Assembly (NCBI GenBank): GCA_951406725.2
Contig: OX597816.1
Location: forward strand, 4,340,001-4,404,000
DNA from: Octopus vulgaris
Lineage: Eukaryota
Direction: 5' to 3'
Length of the DNA stretch: 64,000 bases
The notes under the pieces are model-generated. The model did not search any database, was not told where the DNA came from, and was given only the letters and a program-made list of their open reading frames with translations. Positions 1 through 59,736 of this stretch are shown here, in pieces (position 1 is the stretch's first letter; each line of letters starts with the position of its first letter). The position numbers and the translations under genes are program-made.

Positions 1-177
1 TATTTCGTCTGCCGGTACGTTCTGAGTTCAAATTCCGCCGAAGTCGACTTTGCCTTTCATCCTTTCGGGGTCGATAAATTAAGTACCAGTTAGGCACTGG
101 GGTCGATGTAATCGACTTAATCTCTTTGTCTGTCCTTGTTTGTCCCCTCTATGTTTAGCCCCTTGTGGGCAATAAAG

Positions 178-181
<4 letters not shown>
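1..181 (+). mobile_element. SINE family A (tRNA-like head, Nin/Deu-like central domain); 5' end cut by the window edge
   Basis: B-box-like GAGTTCAAATTCC, central GCCTTTCATCCTTTCGGGGTCGATAAATTAAGTACC and tail ...GCCCCTTGTGGG..AAAGAAATA; the same sequence recurs more than 15 times in the window. Confidence 0.9.
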
Positions 182-234
<53 letters not shown>

Positions 235-357
235 TAAATGAAAGAATGGAGTCGAACGAAGATGTTAAAATTCCTTTACTCTCGACATATTTTCCATGCT
301 GACGATAAACATAGGATAATTCATTCACCTATTTATATATATATATATATATACACA

Positions 358-491
<134 letters not shown>

Positions 492-559
492 GTATACCGT
501 TCTTAGAGGAACCAACTATGATGTCATTCTCCAAATGATCTGAAATGGATTTCTGGTCG

Positions 560-885
560 ATTGAAGTATTTTATCGTATTTTGCATTTAGTTGTGAGCTT
601 TAGTTATCACTAAGTTATCACTAAGTGTTAAGTTCCTCTGTATTTAACCTGGCGTTTTAAGTATTAATTTAATGTGTCTGGAATATTCCTTCATAATCTT
701 TCCAGTCATTTACATGCTTTACACGCTGTGTCTACTTCACCGATTTCTCAGCATATTCCCATGTGTGCGCGTTCATTTTGATTCTCTTTATCTGGAATTC
801 TATATCGAGCATTCTTTATCTTCGTCCAATGTTCTTAATTATTTCTCTTCTCTTTAAGATTGCATTGTCGCATTTTTCAAATCCG
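560..885 (-). pseudogene. Highly degenerate R4/Dong-like non-LTR retrotransposon RT fragment
   Basis: Minus strand reads KCDNAILKRREII and MTGKIMKEYSRHIKLILKT, resembling R4-clade RT motifs (KC..LKRGK; KEY.RR.K.ILKT.LN); abuts (TAA)n. Confidence 0.45.
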
Positions 886-888
886 GAA

Positions 889-1065
<177 letters not shown>

Positions 1066-1320
1066 ATAGACGGAATCAAAAATTCAGTGATGGGGGAAAT
1101 GATCAGAAGAGAATGTTATCGCAGGGTAAGGGCAATATTCAAGAAAAAGCTGAATGCAAGAAACACGATCTAAGCGATCAATACATTAGTCTTGCCGGTC
1201 GTGACTTACAGTTTCAATATCATTAACTGGTCAATTACTGAAATATGTAATCTTGACAGATAAATACGAACATTGTTGACAATGCATAGAATGCACCACC
1301 CTAAGGCAGATATAGAAAAA
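1066..1320 (+). pseudogene. R4/Dong-like non-LTR retrotransposon fragment (RT thumb region)
   Basis: Translates ECYRRVRAIFKKKLNARNTI*AINTLVLPVVTYSFNIINW...LDR*IRTLLTMHRMHHPKADIE, typical of R4/Dong/Rex6 ORFs; in-frame stops. Confidence 0.75.
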
Positions 1321-1321
1321 C

Positions 1322-1615
1322 AGCTGTTCTTCACTCCTACTCCAGAGCGTCGGCTGCGGGGTCACTCCGAAAAGCTCTATCTGCGACGATTTCATCTCAA
1401 TCGAAGGAGAAGGGCTTTCTCCGTCCGGGTTGCGGATCCGTGGAATAAGCTGCCGGACGAGATAGTGAAGATGCCGTCGACCGCTCGATTCAAAGTCTCT
1501 CTTGACCACAAGTGGCCTGAACTTTTTACATGAACACCCTCCCTGTACATAACTCCATGCCCCTCTACATGGCCTTGCTTTTGATTTTGAGCCAAAAAAT
1601 TAACTTAACTTAACT
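1322..1615 (+). mobile_element. 3' end of CR1-clade LINE, same family as 17254-19847
   Basis: Closely similar to 19543-19847 (LFFTP.PERRLRGHSEKLYL...KWPELFT*, 3'UTR); ends in (TAACT)n. Confidence 0.92.
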
Positions 1616-1639
1616 TAGAAACAGGTTTGTACCGAAAAT

Positions 1640-2098
1640 GATACTGGTGCATTGCAGAGGTTTTGAGACTTTTTCAGTAGAGACATTTACTAATTTTGAA
1701 GAAGATCTAAACACTCATCTCCTTCCGAGAAGGATCCCCTGACTCCAATGCGCTTGTTGTAGCGCTCCAACCACTTCGTGAAGGCCACATGGACGTTCTC
1801 CAAACTGAAGGCGTCCAGGACTCTTGTCACAACCTCCTTCATCTTCAAATTGGCTGCCCCTGAAGTTCTCCTTCGGCGTAGGGGACAACCAAAAGGCACA
1901 ACGAGCAAGGTCCAGACTTTAGGGAGGGCGAGGGACTGTTTTGATGGCCATCCCTGCCGAGTAATTGGTTATCAGAATGGAAATAAGGAAGGTACTGGTG
2001 AAGGTTCTCTGGCTTTTTGTAACGAAGTCTCTTCCAGGAACTCCTTCAAAACCTCCACAAAGTACTCATTGTCGACCCTCTGGCCAGAGGGAACCCAG
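1640..2098 (-). mobile_element. mariner transposase remnant (C-terminal half)
   Basis: Minus strand WVPSGQRVDNEYFVEVLKEF... and MKEVVTRVLDAFS...FTKWLERYNKRIGVRGSFSEGD, matching the mariner C-terminus (W..R..KC...G.YFEGD); frameshifted. Confidence 0.75.
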
Positions 2099-2318
2099 AG
2101 TTAATGCTAATTCATACACTGAGATGTTGAAGATAACAAAATCTAAAGTAAATACATATTTCTTCGACTGTATTCTTCTGAAGATAGGCCTTTGCTCCCA
2201 AAATACTTTCTACAATTTTAGAAGCTTTCATTATTTCTCGTTTCATTCATTTTCTAATTTTGTACTGCAATGCTTCAAGCCAACTACAACGCGTGTTTTT
2301 CCTTACATACGTACATAT

Positions 2319-2870
<552 letters not shown>

Positions 2871-3326
2871 ATTGTGCATATGTGTGTATAATGTATGGAG
2901 ATATGCGCTAACCTAATATTTATTCTTTTTTTACATTTTACAGCTGTTGACATTTGTCTGTTCCCGATATATATCTTTGCCGTCACAGAGTCACAGATCG
3001 ATATCAATGGCGATCTGAATTGTCATTTATCATTGATGAACGAGTATAGCACACTTGGCTGTAATACCTGACTGAGCTATCGCCGTCACAGCAAATGTTC
3101 TCCGTTACTAATCCACTTGAGTATATCAATCTATCTCACGAAGCTGAAGTGTCAATGGAGACTGTAGCGGATTACAGTTCACCGCTCTTGACAGCTCCAG
3201 TTGCGAGGCTCTCTAATAGATGGCTCTTCGGTTACATTGAAGTCGCGCGCATAAATTGTCTCCTCAGTTGACGTAGACGAAAGTGAAAGTAGTTCCGCTA
3301 ACCTAACGTATTCCACATGTTGGCAG

Positions 3327-3492
3327 AGGCGCGACCGTGGAGGTAAAATAGCTACTTTCCAACCATGTGGTCATGGGTTCAACCCACTACGCGGTATCTT
3401 GGGTAAGTGTCTTCTGCTATAGTCTCAAGCCGACCAAAGCCTTGTGAGTGGATTTGGTAGATGGCAACTGAAAGAAGCCTGTCGTATATATG

Positions 3493-3587
<95 letters not shown>

Positions 3588-4155
3588 CGATCACGAACCC
3601 ACAAGAGTAAACAAGAGAGACAGAGAGAGGCAGCAAAAAAGGAAAATGCCTCTTGCATTTGAAATACTATGGAAATATTCTTTTAAAATACTTTTCATTT
3701 AATTTTTCCAAAATTTAATTGTTTTCTATACTTAGAGTTGAAAAAGTCTCAATGACCGAAACCGGTACTGAAACGTGTTTTTATAAAATTATTTTAGCAT
3801 TTTCTACCTTGACTTTTATTCGATATGTATATATCAACTCGTATGTTCCTTTTCAACCTTCTAAATATATATGTGTGTGTGTGTGACTGAATATGTCTAT
3901 GTATGTGTGTATGTATTATGTATGAATGCATGTATGTATATCTATATCTGTGTGTTCTTTGTATATTCCCTCAACGCTGCCTTACAATTAATGTTGGCTT
4001 GTTTATGTCCCTGCAACTTAGCGGTTCGACGAAAAAGAACGCTAAAATAAGTACCAGGCTTACAAAATATAAATACTGGGGTCGACTTGTTCGACATATC
4101 CCTTCAAAATTAGTGCCCCATCTTGGCTACAGTTCAATGACCGAAACATATAAAT
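3327..4155 (+). mobile_element. SINE family B (tRNA head, CORE-like CCTTGGGCAAG motif, internal TA/TG tract); diverged and interrupted at about 3590-3865
   Basis: Head 3327-3490 and tail about 3960-4155 match the intact copies at 11757 and 16682. Confidence 0.75.
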
Positions 4156-4214
4156 ATTAATAATCATTTCTACTCTAGACACGAGACCCGAAATTTTGTT
4201 TTGTGGGAGCCTAG

Positions 4215-4360
4215 TTGATTAGATCGACCCCAGTACGCAACTGCTATTTAATTTATCGACCCCGAAAGGATGAAAAGCAAAGTCGACCTCGGCGGTATTT
4301 GAACTCAGAACGTAACGGCAGACGTAATACGGCAACGCCTTTCGCCAGCTCGCCGCCTTA
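4215..4360 (-). mobile_element. SINE family A, partial
   Basis: Reverse complement of the family A head and central domain. Confidence 0.85.
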
Positions 4361-4499
4361 TCTAAATAATGATAATAATAAAAGAAGATACGATGAAATA
4401 AGTGATATTCACGGTTAGATTGAGCATAACATAGAATGTTCAACACCGGTAGCCTTTAATTATTAAGCACACGGTTTGAGAAACTTGGCTTTGATGACA

Positions 4500-5680
4500 A
4501 CAGTATGGAAAATTTTGTTTTATCGTAGCCATTTATTCATATAAAATTCTACCTTCAAGATCCATTTTTGTTACCTCAAATATTCTGCCTCGTTCAAAAT
4601 TATTGCGAAAGAAAGAAAGAGAACAAACAGAAAACGTCATAACATTCCAACGACATTTGGTTTTGGGATGGACGAATTCCTTCAAAATCTACCAAAGAAA
4701 CCACCGTTGCTCCTACATGTTTAGGCAAACAACAGTTCCCACTCGAGAGGGCCATGCTGTCCCAAATCAGGGCTTACAACACTATTGAGCTATCAAGTTC
4801 GCCATTACCAGGGCCAATAAGATACCTAACAATGCTTCTAGTTAAAAGGGTGTCAAAGAAGGAAACACTAACCGTCCGGATCTTTTTATTGTATCTCTCA
4901 AAATAGTCATTAGGGTCCCATTGATTGGAAAGGTGACATCAACAGCGACAGTGAGCTACTAACACACTTCTGACATCTCCAATTCGAGGGTTGGCGGACG
5001 ATATTTTCCTCATTACAAACTTCAGATCAGCTCCAGAGCATGGAGACAAAGCTGGAATGCCACAGTTGAGCAGTAGGCTTGAAAATAAGCTCTATAATAA
5101 CAAAATACATACAATGTAAAAACTTGAGTGATGAAACGGAGGAGGTGAAGGTCTCTACTTGGGATAGACACGTTCAATATATACCTCAACATGAAAGCTG
5201 AACGTAGCGGCAGACGAGATACCGCTAAGCATTTCGCCCGGCGTGCTAACGTTTCTGCCAGCTCACCGCCTTTTCAATACTACCACTGATCTACCGCCTC
5301 TCTTTAGACGCAAGCGAGACGTGGGTTACTAGAATGAAGGAATAAGGACGACTGATTACCACGCCGTGGGCCATGGAAAGATTCGTGCGAGGAATACAAC
5401 TATAGAATCATATGGAAGACGAGGTATTTTGAGAACGGAGCGTGGTGAAAAGTATGGTCGCAGAATAACAAAAGGACATGTTCCGCTGAACCGAGTTTGT
5501 TGCAAAGTCCTCGCACAAGCGGACTCGTGAAACTGTCGAGTGATATTTTAGGGATCGGAAGTTACCTCTCGGAAGACTGGTAAAGATATGGGAAGGTGAT
5601 AGTGAAAACATCAGGGCCCAATGGAAGAACATGTGATCAGCGATTTGTAATGACATCTGATAGACTTGGAGACAGAGCAA
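4500..5680 (+). pseudogene. Degenerate RTE-clade LINE RT and C-terminus, with a SINE A head fragment inserted at about 5197-5272
   Basis: KGVKEGNTNRPDLFIVSL (RGVRQGD..SP.LF), ADDIFL, LQSM...VGLKIS...TKYI and ASETW...LITTPWAMER...RDRKLPLGRLVKIWEGD; many stops and frameshifts. Confidence 0.7.
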
Positions 5681-10373: not shown

Positions 10374-10918
10374 CAGTTTGACATACTCGATTTTTACCCG
10401 TCTATATCAAAAGGGTTACTAGTGAAGGCACTTTCCTTTGCTAGGCGTTTCAGACGTTAGCGACAAAGACTTAGATGTCATAATGCTGTTCAATAATGGT
10501 TCGACCTTGGTCAAGCAACCCGACCCTGTAGGCTCCTTTGACGTAGCGATGGAGACCTACGACAGCGCAGATGTATGCGATCTCATCGGGTTGTATATCC
10601 TTGATGTCCTTAAGAAGTTCCCCTCTCTCTCTCTTTGATCTCTACAGAGATGACGCCCTAGCCATCTCCAGAGAAGCCAATGGGCACACTCTGGACGGGC
10701 TTAGGAAAGATCTAATTAGCACCCTCGGCTCCATGGGACTGAAAATTACTATCGAGACCAATCTCACCACCGTGGACTTCTTAGACGTCACGCTCGACTT
10801 GGTCTCTGGTCCATACAGGCCCTACCCCAAGCCAAACAAGAGGCTAACGTACATCAACACAGCCTCCTGTCATCCACTTATTGTGTTCAAAAACCTGCTG
10901 AAGGTTGTCAGCAAGAGG
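10374..10918 (+). pseudogene. Penelope-like element reverse transcriptase fragment (probably Naiad clade)
   Basis: FDILDFYPSI, FDVAMETYDSADVCDLIGLYIL, LYRDDALA, VDFLDVTLDL..PYRPYPKP..YINTASCHP; frameshifted. Confidence 0.85.
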
Positions 10919-11062
10919 ACCCAGAAATATCGTTTGGTTTCCCCACCACCAGCACCAACACCAACACTTTCCCCTTAACGTAAAAACGTGTTTAGGTAGT
11001 AAATAAACATTTCATAGATTCACATATGTTTATGTATACATATATGTGTGCGTTTATATATA

Positions 11063-16681: not shown

Positions 16682-17100
16682 GGCGCAGGAGTGGCTGTGT
16701 GGTAAGTAGCTCGCTAACCAACCACATGGTTCCGGGTTCAGTCCCACTGCGTGGCACCTTGGGCAAGTGTCTTCTGCTATAGCCCCGGGCCGACCAAAGC
16801 CTTCAGAGTGGATTTGGTAGACGGAAACTGAAAGAAGCCTGTCGTATATATGTATATATATATATATATATGTATGTGTGTATGTGTGTGTTTGTGTGTC
16901 TGTGTTTGTCCCCCTAGCATTGCTTGACAACCGATGCTGGTGTGTTTACGTCCCCGTCACCTAGCGGTTCGGCAAAAGAGACCGATAGAATAAGTACTAG
17001 GCTTACAAAAGAATAAGTCCCGGGGTCGATTTGCTCGATTAAAGGCGGTGCTCCAGCATGGCCGCAGTCAAACGACTGAAACAAGTAAAAGAGAAAAGAG
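16682..17100 (+). mobile_element. SINE family B, full length
   Basis: Near-identical to the 11757 and 46937 copies. Confidence 0.93.
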
Positions 17101-17253: not shown

Positions 17254-19847
17254 TGCAAGCTGAGCCTATCTGAGTTTTGCCTGCCGTGTTGGCTGTCTAC
17301 AGGCCGCCTCTTGCCGACCCCCAGGACGATGCTCATTTACTCGAAGCGATAAGATTCGTTTCAGCTTCGCATGACTGTTTGGTACTAGGAGACTTCAAAG
17401 CTCCCACGATCGATTGGCCCGCATCAATTTGTACAACATCTTCCCGGTTCGGCCAGGCCCTTCTTGACGTGGCTGAAGATTGTTTTCTATCGCAACATGT
17501 TGAATATCCGACAAGGCATCGGTCTGGGCAGCAGCCATCTATGCTAGATCTGGTATTCTCCCGCTATCCAAGATCAGTGTCAGACGTATATGTGTGCGCC
17601 CCTCTTGCCAAGAGTGATCATGCGGTCCTGAAGTTCGTCATGCACACAACTTTTTCTGCTCCCACGACTACTTCGCTGCCACGTAGAGTCTTCTCTGCAA
17701 TTAATCTTGAAATTCTAACCGAGGCTTCCGCGCTTCTGGACTGGCGATCCCTGATGACGTTGTCCTCAGTTGACGAACTATGGTCATCCCTCAAAGCATA
17801 TGTAATCTGTTTGACTGACCAGGCAGTTCCCGTTGGGCTTCCCAAGAGGAAGAAATACAAGCCCTGGGTGACGAAGAGGGTTAAACGAGAACGTCGACTC
17901 AGAGATATTGCTTGGGCTGAATTCAAAAATCTGGATTCGACTGCAGCTTTTGAGGTGTACAAAACACAACGAGACCGAGCCGTGAAAATCGAAAAGAAAG
18001 AACGCTTCAGTTATGAATACAAAATCGCGGCAAATGCCAGTAGCAATCCAAAAACCTTCTTTGCCCATGTCCAGCGGAATTCCCGCTTGAACAACCAGAT
18101 TGCAACGTTGGTAGACTCAACAGGCGTATCGATTGAGGACCCTTATCAACAGAGTCAATTATTTGCCGAGGCTTTTTCAACTATTTTCAAACAAGATGAT
18201 GGTCGTGAACCCCCTCCATTTGATAGATCGGTACCTCCAATGCTTCGATTGGTCATCACGCGGGACGAAGTCAAACGTGTTATTCAAGGCCTCGATGTCA
18301 ACAAGGGTCACGGCCCTGACGGCATACACCCACGGGTTATCAAAGCGTTGGCTCCGGTCATCTGCGAGCCCTTAACGCGACTATTCAATATGTCATTGGC
18401 GACGGGTGTTATACCTGCAGACTGGAGAACAGCGATAATCTGCCCAATTTTCAAAAAAGGGAGCCGCGAAGACCCGCTTAACTACTTACCGGTTTCCCTT
18501 ACATCAATAATCAACAAGATGTTCGAAACTATCCTTAAGAAAAGTATGATGCTCCACCTCCTAAACACAGCCTCTATCTCTGATTCCCAACACGGCTTCG
18601 TGCCGAAGAGATCATGCTTGACCAACTTACTAGTAATGGAAGAATTGGTGACGCGCATCCTCGATGATAGTGATGCTGTTGACATCGTTTTACTGGACTT
18701 TGCCAAAGCTTTTGACTCGGTAAACCACCGCCTATTACTTGTCAAGCTTCAAGCATATAGTTTCCATCCGGATATTGTACGATGGGTTGGTGCCTTCCTC
18801 TCAGATCGCTCCTTCCAAGTCCAAGTTAATGGTTCGCGGTCCGACGTCTCCAGTGCGAGCAGTGGCGTGCCTCAAGGTTCAGTGCTTGGACCCTTGTTGT
18901 TCTTAGTCTTCATAAATGACTTGCCCGACGACCTCACGCAACACACCCTTCTATTTGCCGACGATATCAAACTGGTCGCTCCTCGCGGTAATATAGAGGA
19001 TCTTCGTCGATGCCTCCACCAAATTTGGAAGTGGTCTAACGATTGGGACCTGTGTCTGAACGTGTCAAAGTGCTGTCATCTGCCTGTCGGCTCTACTCCT
19101 GCAACTCAACTTGATTTCGAGCCGGGTCGTCTGCTGCTGGAGAGGACCGATCAGGTAAAGGACCTAGGTATCTTGGTGGATTCCTCCTTTTCGCCTTCGG
19201 CCCAGTGCGTCCATGCTGCCAACAAAGCACGCGGAATTCTGTTCTTGATTCGACGGTCATTCGGAATGCTCACAGCAGCCATATTCCTACCACTCTATGT
19301 CACGCTGGTGAGACCCATATTGAAGTATGGGATTCAAGCCTCTTCTCCTTATCTCCTCAAAGACATACAGCATCTCGAAAGAGTCCAGAAGCTGGCTACC
19401 CGCATGGTTCATGGTCTCAAAAATTTGTCCTACGAAGAAAGGCTGAGGACGCTCGACCTTTATTCTCTTGAAAAACGCCGCCGCCGTAGTGATCTCATTC
19501 TCGCCCACAACATCATAAGCGGAAAGTGTAACCTCTCGAAAGAGCTGTTCTTCACTCCTGCTCCAGAGCGTCGGCTGCGGGGTCATTCCGAAAAGCTCTA
19601 CCTGCGACGATTTCATCTCAATCGAAGGAGAGGAGCTTTCTACGTCCGGGTTGCGGATCCGTGGAACAAGCTGCCAGACGAGATGGTAAAGATGCCGACG
19701 ACCGCTTTGTTCAAAGCCTCCCTGGACCTCAAGTGGCCTGAACTCTTTACATGAACACCACCCTGTACTTAACTCCATGTCCCCCTACATGGCCTTGCTA
19801 TTTGTTTTTGAGCCAAATTAACTAACTAACTAACTAACTAACTAACT
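17254..19847 (+). mobile_element. CR1-clade LINE, 5'-truncated and young
   Basis: APE+RT ORF, short 3'UTR, (TAAC)n tail; candidate target-site duplication TCTAT (17249-17253 and 19848-19852). Confidence 0.93.
17277..19754 (+). CDS. LINE ORF2 (partial AP endonuclease plus reverse transcriptase), 825 codons; the TTG start is an artefact of truncation
   Basis: VYRPP, LGDF.AP.IDW, LDLVF, SDH (APE); GPDGIHP, QHGF, DFAKAFDSVNH, GVPQGSVLGPLLF, LFADD, KDLGI (RT); RGH..KL...WNKLP (CR1-type C-terminus). Confidence 0.9.
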   Translation: MPAVLAVYRPPLADPQDDAHLLEAIRFVSASHDCLVLGDFKAPTIDWPASICTTSSRFGQALLDVAEDCFLSQHVEYPTRHRSGQQPSMLDLVFSRYPRSVSDVYVCAPLAKSDHAVLKFVMHTTFSAPTTTSLPRRVFSAINLEILTEASALLDWRSLMTLSSVDELWSSLKAYVICLTDQAVPVGLPKRKKYKPWVTKRVKRERRLRDIAWAEFKNLDSTAAFEVYKTQRDRAVKIEKKERFSYEYKIAANASSNPKTFFAHVQRNSRLNNQIATLVDSTGVSIEDPYQQSQLFAEAFSTIFKQDDGREPPPFDRSVPPMLRLVITRDEVKRVIQGLDVNKGHGPDGIHPRVIKALAPVICEPLTRLFNMSLATGVIPADWRTAIICPIFKKGSREDPLNYLPVSLTSIINKMFETILKKSMMLHLLNTASISDSQHGFVPKRSCLTNLLVMEELVTRILDDSDAVDIVLLDFAKAFDSVNHRLLLVKLQAYSFHPDIVRWVGAFLSDRSFQVQVNGSRSDVSSASSGVPQGSVLGPLLFLVFINDLPDDLTQHTLLFADDIKLVAPRGNIEDLRRCLHQIWKWSNDWDLCLNVSKCCHLPVGSTPATQLDFEPGRLLLERTDQVKDLGILVDSSFSPSAQCVHAANKARGILFLIRRSFGMLTAAIFLPLYVTLVRPILKYGIQASSPYLLKDIQHLERVQKLATRMVHGLKNLSYEERLRTLDLYSLEKRRRRSDLILAHNIISGKCNLSKELFFTPAPERRLRGHSEKLYLRRFHLNRRRGAFYVRVADPWNKLPDEMVKMPTTALFKASLDLKWPELFT

Positions 19848-33700: not shown

Positions 33701-34744
33701 AACTGATTAATGTCGTTGAAAGTGTAATTCGGTAGAAAACGCCTGGATACACATAGAACCGCTGATAAATGTAATTATTATGGAAATGGGTTTGAGTGAA
33801 GCTCCAGTGCCAACAGACATAAGAAAAGATTGGAGACAGTACAAGAACTCTTTGCTCATAAGAGCAATTAAATTTCTCTCGACCGCAACAGTTTTTAAAA
33901 GGAGAAACGAATAAAAGTTCGAAGTCCTGGATCAATCATTTTGCTCCAAAATAACGACGAAGGATGGTCCTACATACTTATGCAAATCGAACGCTATGTT
34001 CGATCATCTTCTTGCATGTTATCGATCAACTCTGTAAGAGCTGACAAGAGGTCATCAGCAACAATATTTAATTGGTTGGGAATACGTCTGAAATGTTTTG
34101 AAGTAAAATAGTGCAGGCAAGAAATGACAATTATTTTTCCTGTTGCTTATAAGACCAAAGAAACTACAGAAGAAGCCTATAGCAAATTTAACCGACGTCA
34201 TTATCTACACAGAACATAGTTTCTCTGTTATAAACCGAAAATAAGCGAATACGATTCTGTGAAATTTAAAGTGCACAGATTTAAGACGAGAAATAAATTC
34301 AGCTGAATTAACTACCAACCAGTATATTACTGGTTAACTTACAACACAGAGATGGATTGGAAGATGGAACACGATAACAAGGCCAAACATTTGGGACAGA
34401 GCGATTTTGTTTTTGGATTACATTCTCTTGGATAAATATTGGTTTCAAATTTTAGCACAAGTCCAGCAGTTTTGTGGGAGGGCATAGGTCGACCCCAGTG
34501 CACAACTGGTACTTATTTTATCGACCCTGGATGGCAAAGTGGGCCTCGGCGGAATATGAATTCAGAACGTAAGTGCTCGGTTTTACTTTGCCCCGCGTGC
34601 TTAATGATTCACTCAGCTTGCCACATTCACTATTGAATAAATATTAACGTGGCACCTTGGGCAAGTGTCTTCTACTATAGCCTCGGGCCGACCAAAGCCT
34701 TGTGAGTGGATTTGGTAGACGGAAACTGAAAGAAACCCGTCGTA

Positions 34745-34805
<61 letters not shown>

Positions 34806-34806
<1 letters not shown>

Positions 34807-35326
34807 GGTCCCGGGTTGATTCGGGGTTAACCACAGTAAGTAAGGTACTCAATACATAGCAGAGTAAAATTAATTTATTATATAGAAGGAGCTTCTACAG
34901 GACTAGTACTGTTTCATTCAAGAGAAATCTTCAGGAAGCTATTTAACAAGAATTGTATTAGCATTTATACATTTAGGCAGGTTTAAAGGAGTGGTGGTGG
35001 GGGACTTTTTTGGGGGTAGGCATAGCGCAAAATATCATACTTGGGGGAGTGGTCAAGGAGTCAGTGGTAAGTTAGATGAAAGAATAGATAAATAAAAAAA
35101 TAAAAAAATAAAATAATAAAATAAAATAAAAAAAAAAAAAAAAATAAAATAATAAAAAAAAAAAAAATAAAAAAATAAAAAAATAAAAAAATAAAAAATA
35201 TATATAAAAAATATATATATAAAAAAATATATATATAAAAAAAGGGGGGATAGAGTTATAGGTAAATAAGGAGATTCTCACTTATACCTATACACATATG
35301 TATACGTATCTACACACATATATATA

Positions 35327-35370
<44 letters not shown>

Positions 35371-36463
35371 TATATACACATATACATACATATCTACATA
35401 CACACATACATACACCCGCCCACATATACAAATTTATACACATGCACATGCATATACCTGTCTACACAGGCCCTCTCCTTAACAAATTTTCAGAACACTC
35501 CCCAAATTGCATGCATAAGAAGTACGCGAACTACAAGAACTATAGACCTACCCGGCAACCTGATTGATGACAACCCCCCCCTACACCCCCCCCAACCCCA
35601 CTGTTCCCCTAGCACCCCCGATTACCTTTTCTCCTAAGACCTTTCACATATTGTATGTGCACGCTTGTATATGTGTATCGTATGTATGTATATATGTATA
35701 GAAATGCATGGGTACAGTAGGAATATACGCATGTATTATGTGTGTGTGTGTGTATGTATGCATGTAAAAATATATATATGTATATATATTTGCATATATG
35801 TATATATATATATATATGTATGTGCTTGTATGTGTGTGTGTGTGTATATATGTATATGTGTTTGTATGTATATGTGTATATACGTATATGCATATGTATG
35901 TGTAAATGTATGTGTTTATGTATGTGTATGTATGTATAAAATATTATATAATTAGGGCTTAGTAAAATAAAATAAATTACTTTGCCACATACTAAACTTT
36001 CTAGAAATAGCAGCCAATAAAGTTTTTTAGCCTCTTCCACTACTTAGAGAATTTTTTTCCCTCTAACATTGTTTACTCAAAATAATAATGGTCCCTTTAC
36101 ATACTGAATACTTGGTGAAATTGATTAATAACTAATTAACTTTACCCTCCCTTGTTGATATATATATATATATGTATATGTGTACATGTAAGTATATATG
36201 TGTGTGTGTGTATGTGTGTATGTATGTATTTGTATATGTGTGTGTGTATATGTATGTGCGCGCGTGTGTGTGTATGTATGTGTATGTATATTTGTATATG
36301 TATATGCATGTATATATATGTGTGTGTATATGTGTATTATGTATGTATTTATATAGATATGTAATTTATATATATATGTATGTATATGCATCTGTCTGTG
36401 TGTGTGTATGTGTATATATGTGTATCATTATTGCGCATGTATACATGTATATGTGTATATGTA

Positions 36464-36533
<70 letters not shown>

Positions 36534-36623
36534 TGTGTATGTACATGTATATATGTATGTGTGTGTATATATATATATGTTTATATGTGAGTATGTAGAG
36601 ATATAAGTATATGCATGTGTATA

Positions 36624-36654
<31 letters not shown>

Positions 36655-36820
36655 GTATGGGTATGTGTATCAGTGTATATGTATATATGTATGTGTGTGT
36701 ATGTATATGTATGTATATGTGTATATATGTATGTGTATATGTGTATATATGTGTATATATATATATATATGTATGTATGTGTATGTGTATGTATATGTAT
36801 GTGTGTATGTATATGTATGT

Positions 36821-36875
<55 letters not shown>

Positions 36876-37362
36876 TGCGCGTGTGTGTATGTATGCATAT
36901 ATGTATGTATGCATGTATATGTGTATGTATATATGTGTGTAAGTGTGTGCATATATGTATATGTAAGTATGTGTGCGTGTATGAGTATGTATGTATGCTT
37001 GCACACGTGTATATATGTGTGTGTGTGTATATATATGGATGCGCGTGCGTGTGTGCACGTGTATGGGTACGCATGTATATGTGTATGTGCGTGTATGTGT
37101 ATGTATGCATATATGTATGTATGCATGTATATGTGTATGTATATATGTGTGTAAGTGTGTGCATATATGTATATGTAAGTATGTGTGCGTGTATGAGTAT
37201 GTATGTATGCTTGCACACGTGTATATATGTGTGTGTGTGTATATATATGGATGCACGTGCGTGTGTGCACGTGTATGGGTACGCATGTATATGTGTATGT
37301 GCGTGTATGCGTATACGTGTATGTATGTATGTGTGTGCGTATATTTGTATATGTATGTGTGA

Positions 37363-37397
<35 letters not shown>

Positions 37398-37599
37398 TGG
37401 GGGTGTGTGTATGCGTATAAATGCATGTAAGTATGGATGTATGGATGTATGTATGTATGTATACGTATGTATGTGTTTGTGTGTATATGTATGTATGTGT
37501 GTGTATGTGTGTATATATATATATATGTGTGTATATATGTTTGTGTATGTATATATATGTGTATGTATGTGTGTGTATATATATGTGTGTGTGTGTATG

Positions 37600-37653
<54 letters not shown>

Positions 37654-38042
37654 TATGTATCTGTATGTAGGAGCATATGTGTGTGTGTGTATGTATATGT
37701 GTATATGTATATATATGTATATTTATTGGTGTATATGTATAGACTAGCCTCCTAAAGTGTAGACACGAATCTGTAGGTACGAGTACGTATGTGTATATAC
37801 GTGAACGTATGTAGATGTTTGTATGTATGAATATAACGCGTGCGTACGTGTATGTGTATGAGTGTACGAATGGGTGAATGTACGTGCTAATGAGTGTGCG
37901 TGCGGGAATGAGTACTTGCCTTCTAGTAGACAGACAAATGGACATGCTGCCATAGCCAGGATCCTTAGCTCTAGCGATCAAAGATAACAAAAGTAATAAA
38001 TGAAGATAATAAAATTAAAATTAGGGAATGGGCCTGTATTGG

Positions 38043-38085
<43 letters not shown>

Positions 38086-38190
38086 GTGTATGTGTAGGTA
38101 TGTATAGGTACACATGTGTATGTGTGTGTGTATGTATATGTGTATATGTATGTATGTGCACACATGTATATATATGTATGCGTGTATATG

Positions 38191-38223
<33 letters not shown>

Positions 38224-38527
38224 GTACATATGTGTATGTGGGTGTATGTATATATAGGTGTAAATATGTGTATATAGGGAACTAGGTGTGTTGTGTGTGC
38301 ATGAGTGTATGTGCGTATGAATATATATTTTTCTGTGTATATATGTATGTGTGGTCGTGTGTGTATATATATACATGTGTGTATGCGTGCATGCATGGGA
38401 GTGAGTGTATGCATATATACGTGTGTGTATGTGTAGACAGGTATATGCATGTGCATGTGTATAAATTTGTATATGTGGGCGGGTGTATGTATGTGTGTAT
38501 GTAGATATGTATGTATATGTGTATATA

Positions 38528-38562
<35 letters not shown>

Positions 38563-39006
38563 GAGTATATATATGTGTGTAGATACGTATACATATGTGT
38601 ATAGGTATAAGTGAGAATCTCCTTATTTACCTATCACTCTATCCCCCCTTTTTTTATATATATATTTTTTTATATATATATTTTTTATATATATTTTTAT
38701 ATTATTTTTTATTTTTTTATTTTTTTATTTTATTTTTTATTTTTTTATTTTTTTATTTTTTTATTTTATTATTTTATTTTTTTATTTTTTTATATATCTA
38801 TTCTTTCATCTAACTTACCACTGACTCCTTGACCACTCCCCCAAGTATGATATTTTGCGCTATGCCTACCCCCAAAAAAGTCCCCCACCACCACTCCTTT
38901 AAACCTGCCTAAATGTATAAATGCTAATACAATTCTTGTTAAATAGCTTCCTGAAGATTTCTCTTGAATGAAACAGTACTAGTCCTGTAGAAGCTCCTTC
39001 TATATA

Positions 39007-39012
<6 letters not shown>
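34806..39012 (+). mobile_element. Penelope-like insertion with inverted pseudo-LTR (arms of about 590 bp), ORF tail, microsatellite-rich interior and hammerhead
   Basis: 34873-35468 is the near-identical reverse complement of 38430-39012; 35469-35567 encodes [16 protein letters not shown] (Naiad-like LNKRSE..C.H end). Confidence 0.75.
38945..38995 (+). ncRNA. Type I hammerhead ribozyme motif; mirror copy on the minus strand at about 34890-34940
   Basis: AGCTTC-CTGAAGA-tTTC tctt GAAt-GAA-ACAG tactagtc CTGT-A-GAAGCT: 6-bp stem I, 4-bp stem III, GUA triplet. Confidence 0.75.
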
Positions 39013-39046
<34 letters not shown>

Positions 39047-58522: not shown

Positions 58523-58753
58523 GGCGGCGAGCTGGCAGAAACGTTAGCACGCCGGGCGAAATGTGTAGCCGTATTTCGTCTGCCGTTACGTTCTGAGTTC
58601 AAATTCCGCCGAGGTCGACTTTGCCTTTCATCCTCTCGGGGTCGATAAATTAAGTACCAGTTACGCACTGGGATCGATATAATCGACTTAATCCCTTTGT
58701 CTGTCCTTGTTTGTCCCCTCTGTGTGTAGCCCCTTGTGGGTAGTAAAGAAATA
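58523..58753 (+). mobile_element. SINE family A with a 15-bp target-site duplication
   Basis: GTTATGTGGTCATGA at 58481-58495 and 58755-58769. Confidence 0.93.
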
Positions 58754-59513
58754 TGTTATGTGGTCATGAAAATTTTCCGATATCCATTCCTGCGTGGTTG
58801 TAGCTTTGTGTGACGGTGCCGAGCCTTGTTGAAACACATAAGGTCTTCCGTTGCGTACGTTATCAATCCATGGCTTAACCACTGTCTTCAGAACATCTAT
58901 GTAGGCAGCAGAGTTTACTCGAAGACCTTGTGGAAAGAAGTGAGGACGCATCACATCTCCTTTATTGCTGACAACCCCGCAAAACCATGTCAATTGCAGG
59001 GAATTTTTATGCATTACTCTTGGAACTTCCGAAGGGTCTGTACATAGCCATCAGCCATTTCTTCTGTTTATTTTTCCGATCTTGATCAAAGATTTTTTCA
59101 TCTAAGAAGACCAAAATCTTTCTCTGCAGGTTTTTCAGTTTGTTCAGGAGTCTTTTAGATCTGATTAAGCGATTTTCCTTCACTGCTTCTGACATGAAAT
59201 TACCTTTTCTCATGGCGTAAGATTTGTAGCTGATGTTTTTCTGGACAACATTTCGGATTGTTCCTTCTGACTCATGGTGATCTTTTGCAATCAACCTCAA
59301 GGACCTTCTGGGATTGTCATCAATGGTCTGATTTACTTGTTGAATAAATTCTGGTGTTCCAATAGAATCAGTGCGTCTACAATGCTTCTTACGTTTTGAT
59401 ACTGCCGATACATTTCCATCTTTAGCCTCTAACTCCTTGCGAATTTTGCAGCCGAAGGATCCAGCGACTTTCAGAAATCGCGCTATTTCTAAATTGCTAT
59501 GTTCAGCCTTTAT

Positions 59514-59736
59514 ATATTTCTTTACTACCCACGAGGGGCTAAACACAGAGGGAACAAACAAGGACAGACAAAAGGATTAAATCGATTACATCGACCCCAG
59601 TGCGTAACTGGTACTTAATTTATCGACTCCGGAAAGGATGAAAGGTAAAGTTGACCTCGGAGGAATTTGAACTCAGAACGTAACGGCAGACGAAATACGG
59701 CAAAGCATTTCACCCGGCGTGCTAACGTTTCTAGCA
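59514..59736 (-). mobile_element. SINE family A
   Basis: Reverse-complement copy interrupting the N-terminal transposase frame. Confidence 0.9.

Follow-up and report, generated by a model that had tools for sequence, protein, structure and literature searches.

Positions 34,806 to 39,012 of a 64,000-nucleotide stretch of the Octopus vulgaris genome (contig OX597816.1; the whole stretch is called the window here) hold an insertion in which two inverted arms of about 590 bp enclose kilobases of TA- and TG-rich microsatellite. The locus raises the question of what kind of element was inserted and whether the simple repeats already existed in the template from which it was copied, as a sequence-only reading had proposed, which took the insertion to be Penelope-like, inverted and truncated at its 5' end. 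From sister copies in the 2.8-Gb genome assembly (227 contigs), we consider it highly probable that the locus is a young, 5'-truncated and partly inverted insertion of an endonuclease-bearing (EN+) Penelope-like element, likely of the Hydra clade, with a 3.4-kb 3' untranslated region (UTR) consisting of a microsatellite mosaic whose order is common to the sister copies.

The insertion and its sister copies

Local alignment of the arms gave 573 identical bases out of 580 aligned (7 mismatches, 19 gap columns), with the gaps falling within TA and A/T tracts, which bears out their description as near-identical inverses. Both outer ends of the insertion abut (TA)n, an extra piece of 67 nt lies to the left of the left arm only, and the microhomology at the inversion junction does not exceed 1 nt. 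The short frame noticed earlier at the inversion point is present. The sequences on either side belong to one repeat, of which 26 uninterrupted copies, with left and right motifs 26–185 nt apart, occur in the window and the fetched loci; the insertion therefore split a TA tract. This dispersed host repeat, which we take to be SINE-like, is very common and has a short TA/TG tract of its own; in the window it occurs at 16823, 47074, 60294 and 34721, the last being the copy that hosts the insertion. A read-through transcript of the locus would form a predicted stem of about 590 bp, a possible double-stranded substrate for ADAR editing as the sequence-only reading suggested.

Candidates in the genome numbered 495 for the island at the end of the open reading frame (ORF), 1157 for the unique island I3, 1243 for the hammerhead end and 69 for the 5' end, and 40 of each were scored. 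We fetched 77 loci, all among the best-scoring candidates, 38 picked by the ORF-end island and 39 by the 5' end. In the first of these sets, islands I1, I2 and I3 follow in this order in 38 of 38 loci at spacings resembling those of the window, so that the collinearity expected of a copied element holds elsewhere; all five islands are present in 36 of the 38 (of the other two, one continues beyond the fetched sequence and one ends prematurely), and the islands are mostly 94–100% identical. Upstream, 31 of the 38 also carry an inverted 3' copy, whose length varies from locus to locus. The tail stands at exactly one end in all 25 loci with both ends read (14 right, 11 left), and (TA)n adjoins every one of 56 parsed element ends, six more ends not having been parsed. 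Inversion, a one-sided tail and (TA)n targeting are published Penelope-like traits (PMC8557442; this and the other papers are cited from the parts of their text consulted). The family shows the partial tandems (pseudo-LTR, pLTR), inverted 5'-truncated copies and single-end tail of EN+ Penelope-like elements, and together with an ORF encoding a reverse transcriptase (RT) and an endonuclease these features uphold the assignment to Penelope-like elements.

Full-length copies run from the pseudo-LTR with its hammerhead through the tail and 5' UTR, an RT-plus-endonuclease ORF of 713 amino acids and the microsatellite 3' UTR to a second hammerhead, giving a unit of about 5.2–5.7 kb (tandem period 5,193 nt in locus L085). 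The family numbers several hundred recent copies, this insertion among them, and makes up roughly 0.1% of the genome, or 2–3 Mb by a rough sum from the candidate counts (495 × 3.2 kb plus partial copies). The depth ratio in sequencing run X6 (36,218/31.7) comes to about 1,100, although depth is not a valid copy number. To produce such a copy, the endonuclease would nick (TA)n sites, an RNA of about 5.5 kb would be reverse-transcribed there with target priming, and either second priming or a template switch would give rise to the inversion.

The microsatellite mosaic of the 3' UTR

From stop codon to hammerhead the copy in the window measures 3384 nt, 68% of which lies in Tandem Repeats Finder (TRF) arrays of period ≤12, taken here as simple repeat, against 17.5% in the rest of the window. 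It holds 14 pure (TA)≥6 tracts, and TG outnumbers CA by 530 to 82 on the sense strand. In 52 measured copies the median length of this cargo is 3192 nt (2038–3625), and TG is far above CA on the sense strand in all of them. For S2, the largest spacer, the fraction of unique 14-mers recovered in order is 0.46–0.85 (51 of 77 loci, those with exact anchors), compared with a mean of 0.038 (maximum 0.075) for Markov shuffles and 0.015 for non-homologous other spacers. Ordered landmarks amount to 0.23–1.0 in S1 (32 loci) and 0.56–0.98 in S3 (38 loci). The spacers are thus homologous between copies, indicating that the mosaic is inherited, a copied cargo that varies by subfamily, and that simple repeats were indeed present in the template. 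The older copies L097, L098 and L100, with ORFs 89–94% identical, have UTRs of 2.0–2.5 kb that are 59–83% simple repeat; the subfamily measurement covered 24 of 39 loci.

Several observations weigh against this reading. Exact S2 anchors are lacking in 26 of 77 loci, S3 is mostly lost in 11 of 49 copies through a shared deletion, and conservation of the A/T tract S4 is poor (0.05–0.53). Differences in spacer length may partly be assembly error, and the fetched loci are biased to young copies, as the best-scoring ones were chosen.

The cargo probably originated and grew as successive source copies underwent slippage and local duplication, and it would be tolerated rather than needed. Alternatively, repeat-rich host DNA could have been captured once by an ancestral copy, a possibility that deserves some weight but is clearly the less probable. 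Similar TA/TG mosaics are abundant in the surrounding genome, as the repeat content of the window shows; mobilisation of host sequence in trans is described for Penelope elements (PMC8557442); and two other sampled Hydra-like families are without such cargo, one having a UTR of 1.0–1.16 kb with 7–14% repeats (13 copies) and the other a unit of about 2.59 kb. A single capture is harder to reconcile with the TG-over-CA skew, uniform in 52 of 52 UTRs, with cargo length and content that vary by subfamily (2.0–2.5 kb in older and 2.8–3.6 kb in younger copies, with exceptions), and with the short TG/TA patches seen by eye in the UTR of the second Hydra-like family. For L123, a UTR of 2,412 nt was obtained, probably since the search pattern skipped the nearer variant hammerhead of its family. 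Both of these families look young, with many open frames of 727 and 717 codons and hammerheads of their own (L108-L116, L121, L122 and L126; L117-L120, L123-L125 and L127); one of them has a long stem II, and a variant core start occurs in L118.

It is unlikely, in our estimate, that the cargo is kept by selection, with UG/UA-rich RNA aiding replication via (TA)n pairing, host protein binding or template switches. Its retention across subfamilies with ORFs differing by up to about 11%, its constant strand skew, and the youth and abundance of the family that bears it would all fit such a role, but the other active-looking Hydra-like families, those with the open 717- and 727-codon frames, have short UTRs, and subfamilies lacking 400 nt of S3 still spread.

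The cargo contains the element's own type of target, in agreement with the sequence-only reading. The density of (TA)≥6 is 4.14/kb in the cargo and 0.95/kb in the rest of the window, a roughly fourfold enrichment in (TA)n, and the family would thereby gain targets with every new copy. Two nested insertions in TA tracts of the cargo show that these targets are used. L082 has, within the S1 tract, a head-to-head piece of hammerhead and tail from the same family, and in L079/L128 a whole inverted-plus-truncated copy of the family occupies an S2 tract, the host spacer resuming past its tail. Both cases come from BLAST maps; a regex search for nested hammerheads in 52 UTRs returned none and missed L082, where the palindrome is cut inside the motif. 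Two cases in 77 loci are too few for a rate, and their small number is a point against the overall reading. On the reverse strand of L128 at about 1–5600 (G000:C7:109374600-109384599), and at the end of L079, a different Hydra-like element apparently lies inside the cargo of the nested copy; it has a 472-codon frame with RWR, is AT-rich and has an apparent unit of about 5.6 kb, and it would make a putative three-level nest.

A broader proposal would be a self-seeding retrotransposon, which breeds tail arrays as landing sites for itself and for related Penelope families and so builds nested chains, with decayed tails forming a real share of the TA/TG mosaics and the UG-rich RNA functional in replication; we regard this as speculative and rather doubtful. 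The earlier suggestion that the element spreads ready-made simple repeats stands insofar as the cargo is copied, and it was overstated as to extent: with a share of roughly 0.1% of the genome, the family contributes little to present-day microsatellites.

What is new here is the kilobase microsatellite cargo; transposable elements with tandem repeats, and Hydra elements in octopus, are already known. The literature searched contained no account of a Penelope-like element whose 3' UTR consists of kilobases of microsatellite; the family may be present in the curated repeat libraries for octopus behind PMC13282606. Gmr9/GmOgre, with minisatellites between ORF and LTR, likewise spread repeat arrays as internal cargo (PMC3305785); Angela retrotransposons and (GTCY)n MITEs are tandem-repeat-carrying transposons (PMC6947457); and MuTAnT, which targets TA, is alike in its microsatellite targeting (PMC4486113). 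Unlike those repeat-carrying transposons, the present family carries kilobases of di- and tetranucleotide mosaic that include the element's own target, with nested insertions. It provides a clear and dated example of compound microsatellites that originate within a retrotransposon and are then inserted ready-made, and its hundreds of near-identical copies amount to replicate experiments on slippage. In annotation, simple-repeat masking probably hides such tails and removes them from consensus sequences of transposable elements, and microsatellite markers drawn from them would be multi-locus.

Reading frame and integrity of the assembly

The 713-aa frame is unbroken in 2 of 35 copies having a start codon (L075 and L093), and the two ORFs differ at 38 synonymous and 24 non-synonymous codons. 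An ATG in L061 was considered as the ORF start and rejected, since L061 has a 7-nt insertion of its own and the true start lies upstream. In eleven full-length copies the frame ends after 501 aa, at a C-run located between the RT and endonuclease parts. A shortfall at several C-runs is the expected pattern of homopolymer under-calling, and we consider it very probable that the short C-run is such an error in the assembly. Contigs of all four sequencing runs show one extra C (69 of 69 in depth in X7, and 29%, or 2,939 of 10,095 in summed depth, in X9), all three C-runs that are interrupted by another base keep seven positions, two of them in the copies with the whole 713-aa frame, and a second C-run is likewise short in 7 of 39 matches.

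A real break, due to either programmed −1 frameshifting or a defective source copy mobilised in trans, is distinctly unlikely in view of these observations. In its favor, and as a point against the main reading as well, the run is short and out of frame in 41 of 52 assembly matches (a few counted twice via two overlapping loci), in young and older subfamilies alike; calls at A6 and C4 runs elsewhere are for the most part uniform; and the longer run makes up only the minor part of the summed depth in the DNA run X9. Systematic one-base shortfalls at the ORF C-runs of the full-length copies L069-L107 would lead automated annotation to call most copies dead. As it is young and retains intact frames, the family is a candidate for developing an in vitro system, which is still missing for Penelope elements (PMC8557442).

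The region is repeat-dense and homopolymer errors are evident in the assembly, so the question of whether the inverted arm or the spacers could be assembly artefacts has to be considered; we find this highly improbable. A 56-nt contig of run X6 spans the inversion junction (35441-35496) with zero differences at a depth of 31.7, although its 28 nt per side fall below the 31-nt bridging threshold and X6 may be the assembled sample; the other three runs gave no junction contig among the matches listed (127 further rows exist beyond these). Moreover, the arms differ at 7 sites, the tail is on one arm only, the 31 inverted sister loci have their own breakpoints, and the flanks rejoin into a known empty site.

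Clade, hammerhead and surroundings

The family is likely an endonuclease-bearing Penelope-like element of the Hydra clade, judging from its predicted protein. With the RT first, this carries RWR (RIRWRS), DKT (SDKTKN), a CxCx5C linker (CNCHDKTTC) and a YIG core, followed by CxxC and CxH around conserved E and N (CDLC..E..LN..CMH), and CCHH is absent by eye. The motif set of the Hydra clade given by Craig et al. comprises a C-terminal endonuclease, RWK, DKT, CxCx5C, CxxC/CxH and no CCHH (PMC8557442); RWK is matched here with a conservative K to R change, and the C-terminal endonuclease, the hammerhead near the 3' end and (TA)n insertion agree as well. The protein (P0003) has 1080 homologues at E ≤ 1e-20, with identities of about 40% over some 700 aa for the majority of the 120 listed. 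Three points tell against this placement. It is motif-based; Pfam gave no RT or GIY-YIG match for P0001, P0002 or P0003, the lack in P0003 being the relevant one, and a GIY-YIG match in one of five scanned homologues, P0040 only; and the unit exceeds the 'generally short (<3 kb)' length of Hydra elements, a phrase that is descriptive rather than diagnostic (PMC8557442).

Hydra-clade elements such as Hydra-1_Obim, Hydra-1_Ajap and Penelope-1_NV resemble the family in a single RT-then-EN ORF with RWK-type, DKT, CxCx5C, CxxC and CxH motifs, in a tabulated hammerhead with a CUGANGAU...UGAA core and an ACAG..CUGU stem III, and in (TA)n insertion, inverted 5'-truncated copies and a one-end tail (PMC8557442). 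They differ in length, the 27 listed families measuring 1,080–3,045 nt, in a tail of 30–40 nt against about 70 nt here, and with respect to the distance from stop to hammerhead, which in the present family is about 3.2 kb and two-thirds microsatellite (PMC8557442). Hydra-1_Obim itself is a different family by eye, with another hammerhead and another N-terminus (PMC8557442). Neptune, the initial reading, and Nematis were also considered: neither the CX2-5CxxC linker nor CCHH nor DKG is found, and the linker excludes Neptune. The short frame at the inversion point, likened earlier to the C-terminal end of a Naiad, in fact encodes the CxH-bearing terminus of an endonuclease that lies last in the protein and has Hydra-clade motifs; although Naiads share the (TA)n target, the inverted structures and a presence in cephalopods, octopuses included, they are described as having an N-terminal endonuclease, DKA and no canonical hammerhead (PMC8557442), so that domain order, DKT and the hammerhead leave a Naiad with virtually no likelihood.

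Each arm contains the same 51-nt hammerhead motif, with the CUGAAGA core and GUA site recognized earlier, and these are the only two regex matches in the whole window. The layout comprises a 6-bp stem I, CUGAAGA, a 3-bp stem II, GAAA, a 4-bp stem III with a palindromic loop, and the GUA site; stem II is flanked by U.U in place of the G10.1-C11.1 pair, a substitution that occurs in many published Hydra hammerhead motifs (PMC8557442). The 150 matches in 77 loci have the conserved core, three stems and NUH site of type I, and the hammerheads of the family are accordingly classed as predicted type I ribozymes. Among these matches, internal variants present in at least two copies are confined to N7, loop II and loop III, and no compensatory changes were seen. 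The fold is not more stable than that of shuffled sequences (z −0.2 and 0.26), and an Rfam scan listed no hammerhead among the matches shown (150 of 175), only chance miRNA-type matches on microsatellites. Metazoan Penelope-like hammerheads cut poorly as monomers (PMC4209133). Animal non-LTR retrozymes share the type I hammerhead and the link to a Penelope pseudo-LTR, but they are non-coding tandem units, whereas the family here is coding (10.64898/2026.07.22.740005).

As a separate observation, the summed contig depth of the hammerhead/tail at L061:1780-1945 is about 10–90 times that of the 3' part of the ORF in three presumed RNA runs and about 1-fold in the DNA run X9; depth is unsuited to ranking, and related families may contribute to this contrast.

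Table 1. Parts of the insertion and its flanks, in window positions
Feature	Positions	Strand	Basis
Left part of dispersed host repeat, TA tract split by the insertion	34721..34742	+	26 uninterrupted left+right motif pairs
(TA)30, left target half	34743..34803	.	
Tail of about 70 nt, in full-length copies placed between the pseudo-LTR and the 5' UTR; one end only	34806..34872	-	
Inverted copy of the element's last 590 nt (left arm)	34873..35468	-	local alignment
Predicted type I hammerhead motif, left arm	34890..34940	-	regex
End of the RT-endonuclease ORF (final 32 codons plus stop) at the 5' truncation point	35469..35567	+	stop at 35565-35567
3' UTR (about 3.4 kb): TG/TA microsatellite mosaic interspersed with unique islands	35568..38944	+	
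Unique island I2	35938..36156	+	
212-nt tandem duplication within the cargo	36875..37382	+	
Unique island I3	37738..38046	+	40/40 scored full-length matches 100% identical (40 of 1157 candidates scored)
Element 3' end = right arm, the 'short' end without tail	38430..39012	+	local alignment, end parsing
Predicted type I hammerhead motif, right arm; predicted cut after GUA at 38989	38945..38995	+	regex
(TA)n, right target half, then remainder of host repeat	39013..39046	.	

A crude ORF scan of the window recognized no host gene. An 826-codon open frame at 17274-19751 (+) has by eye the look of a LINE endonuclease/RT, which we presume it to be, and the frames at 58691-59576 (−) are presumably Tc1/mariner transposase-like. 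At 10547-10975 (+) lies a fragment of another Hydra-like RT, which resembles Hydra-1_Obim by eye.

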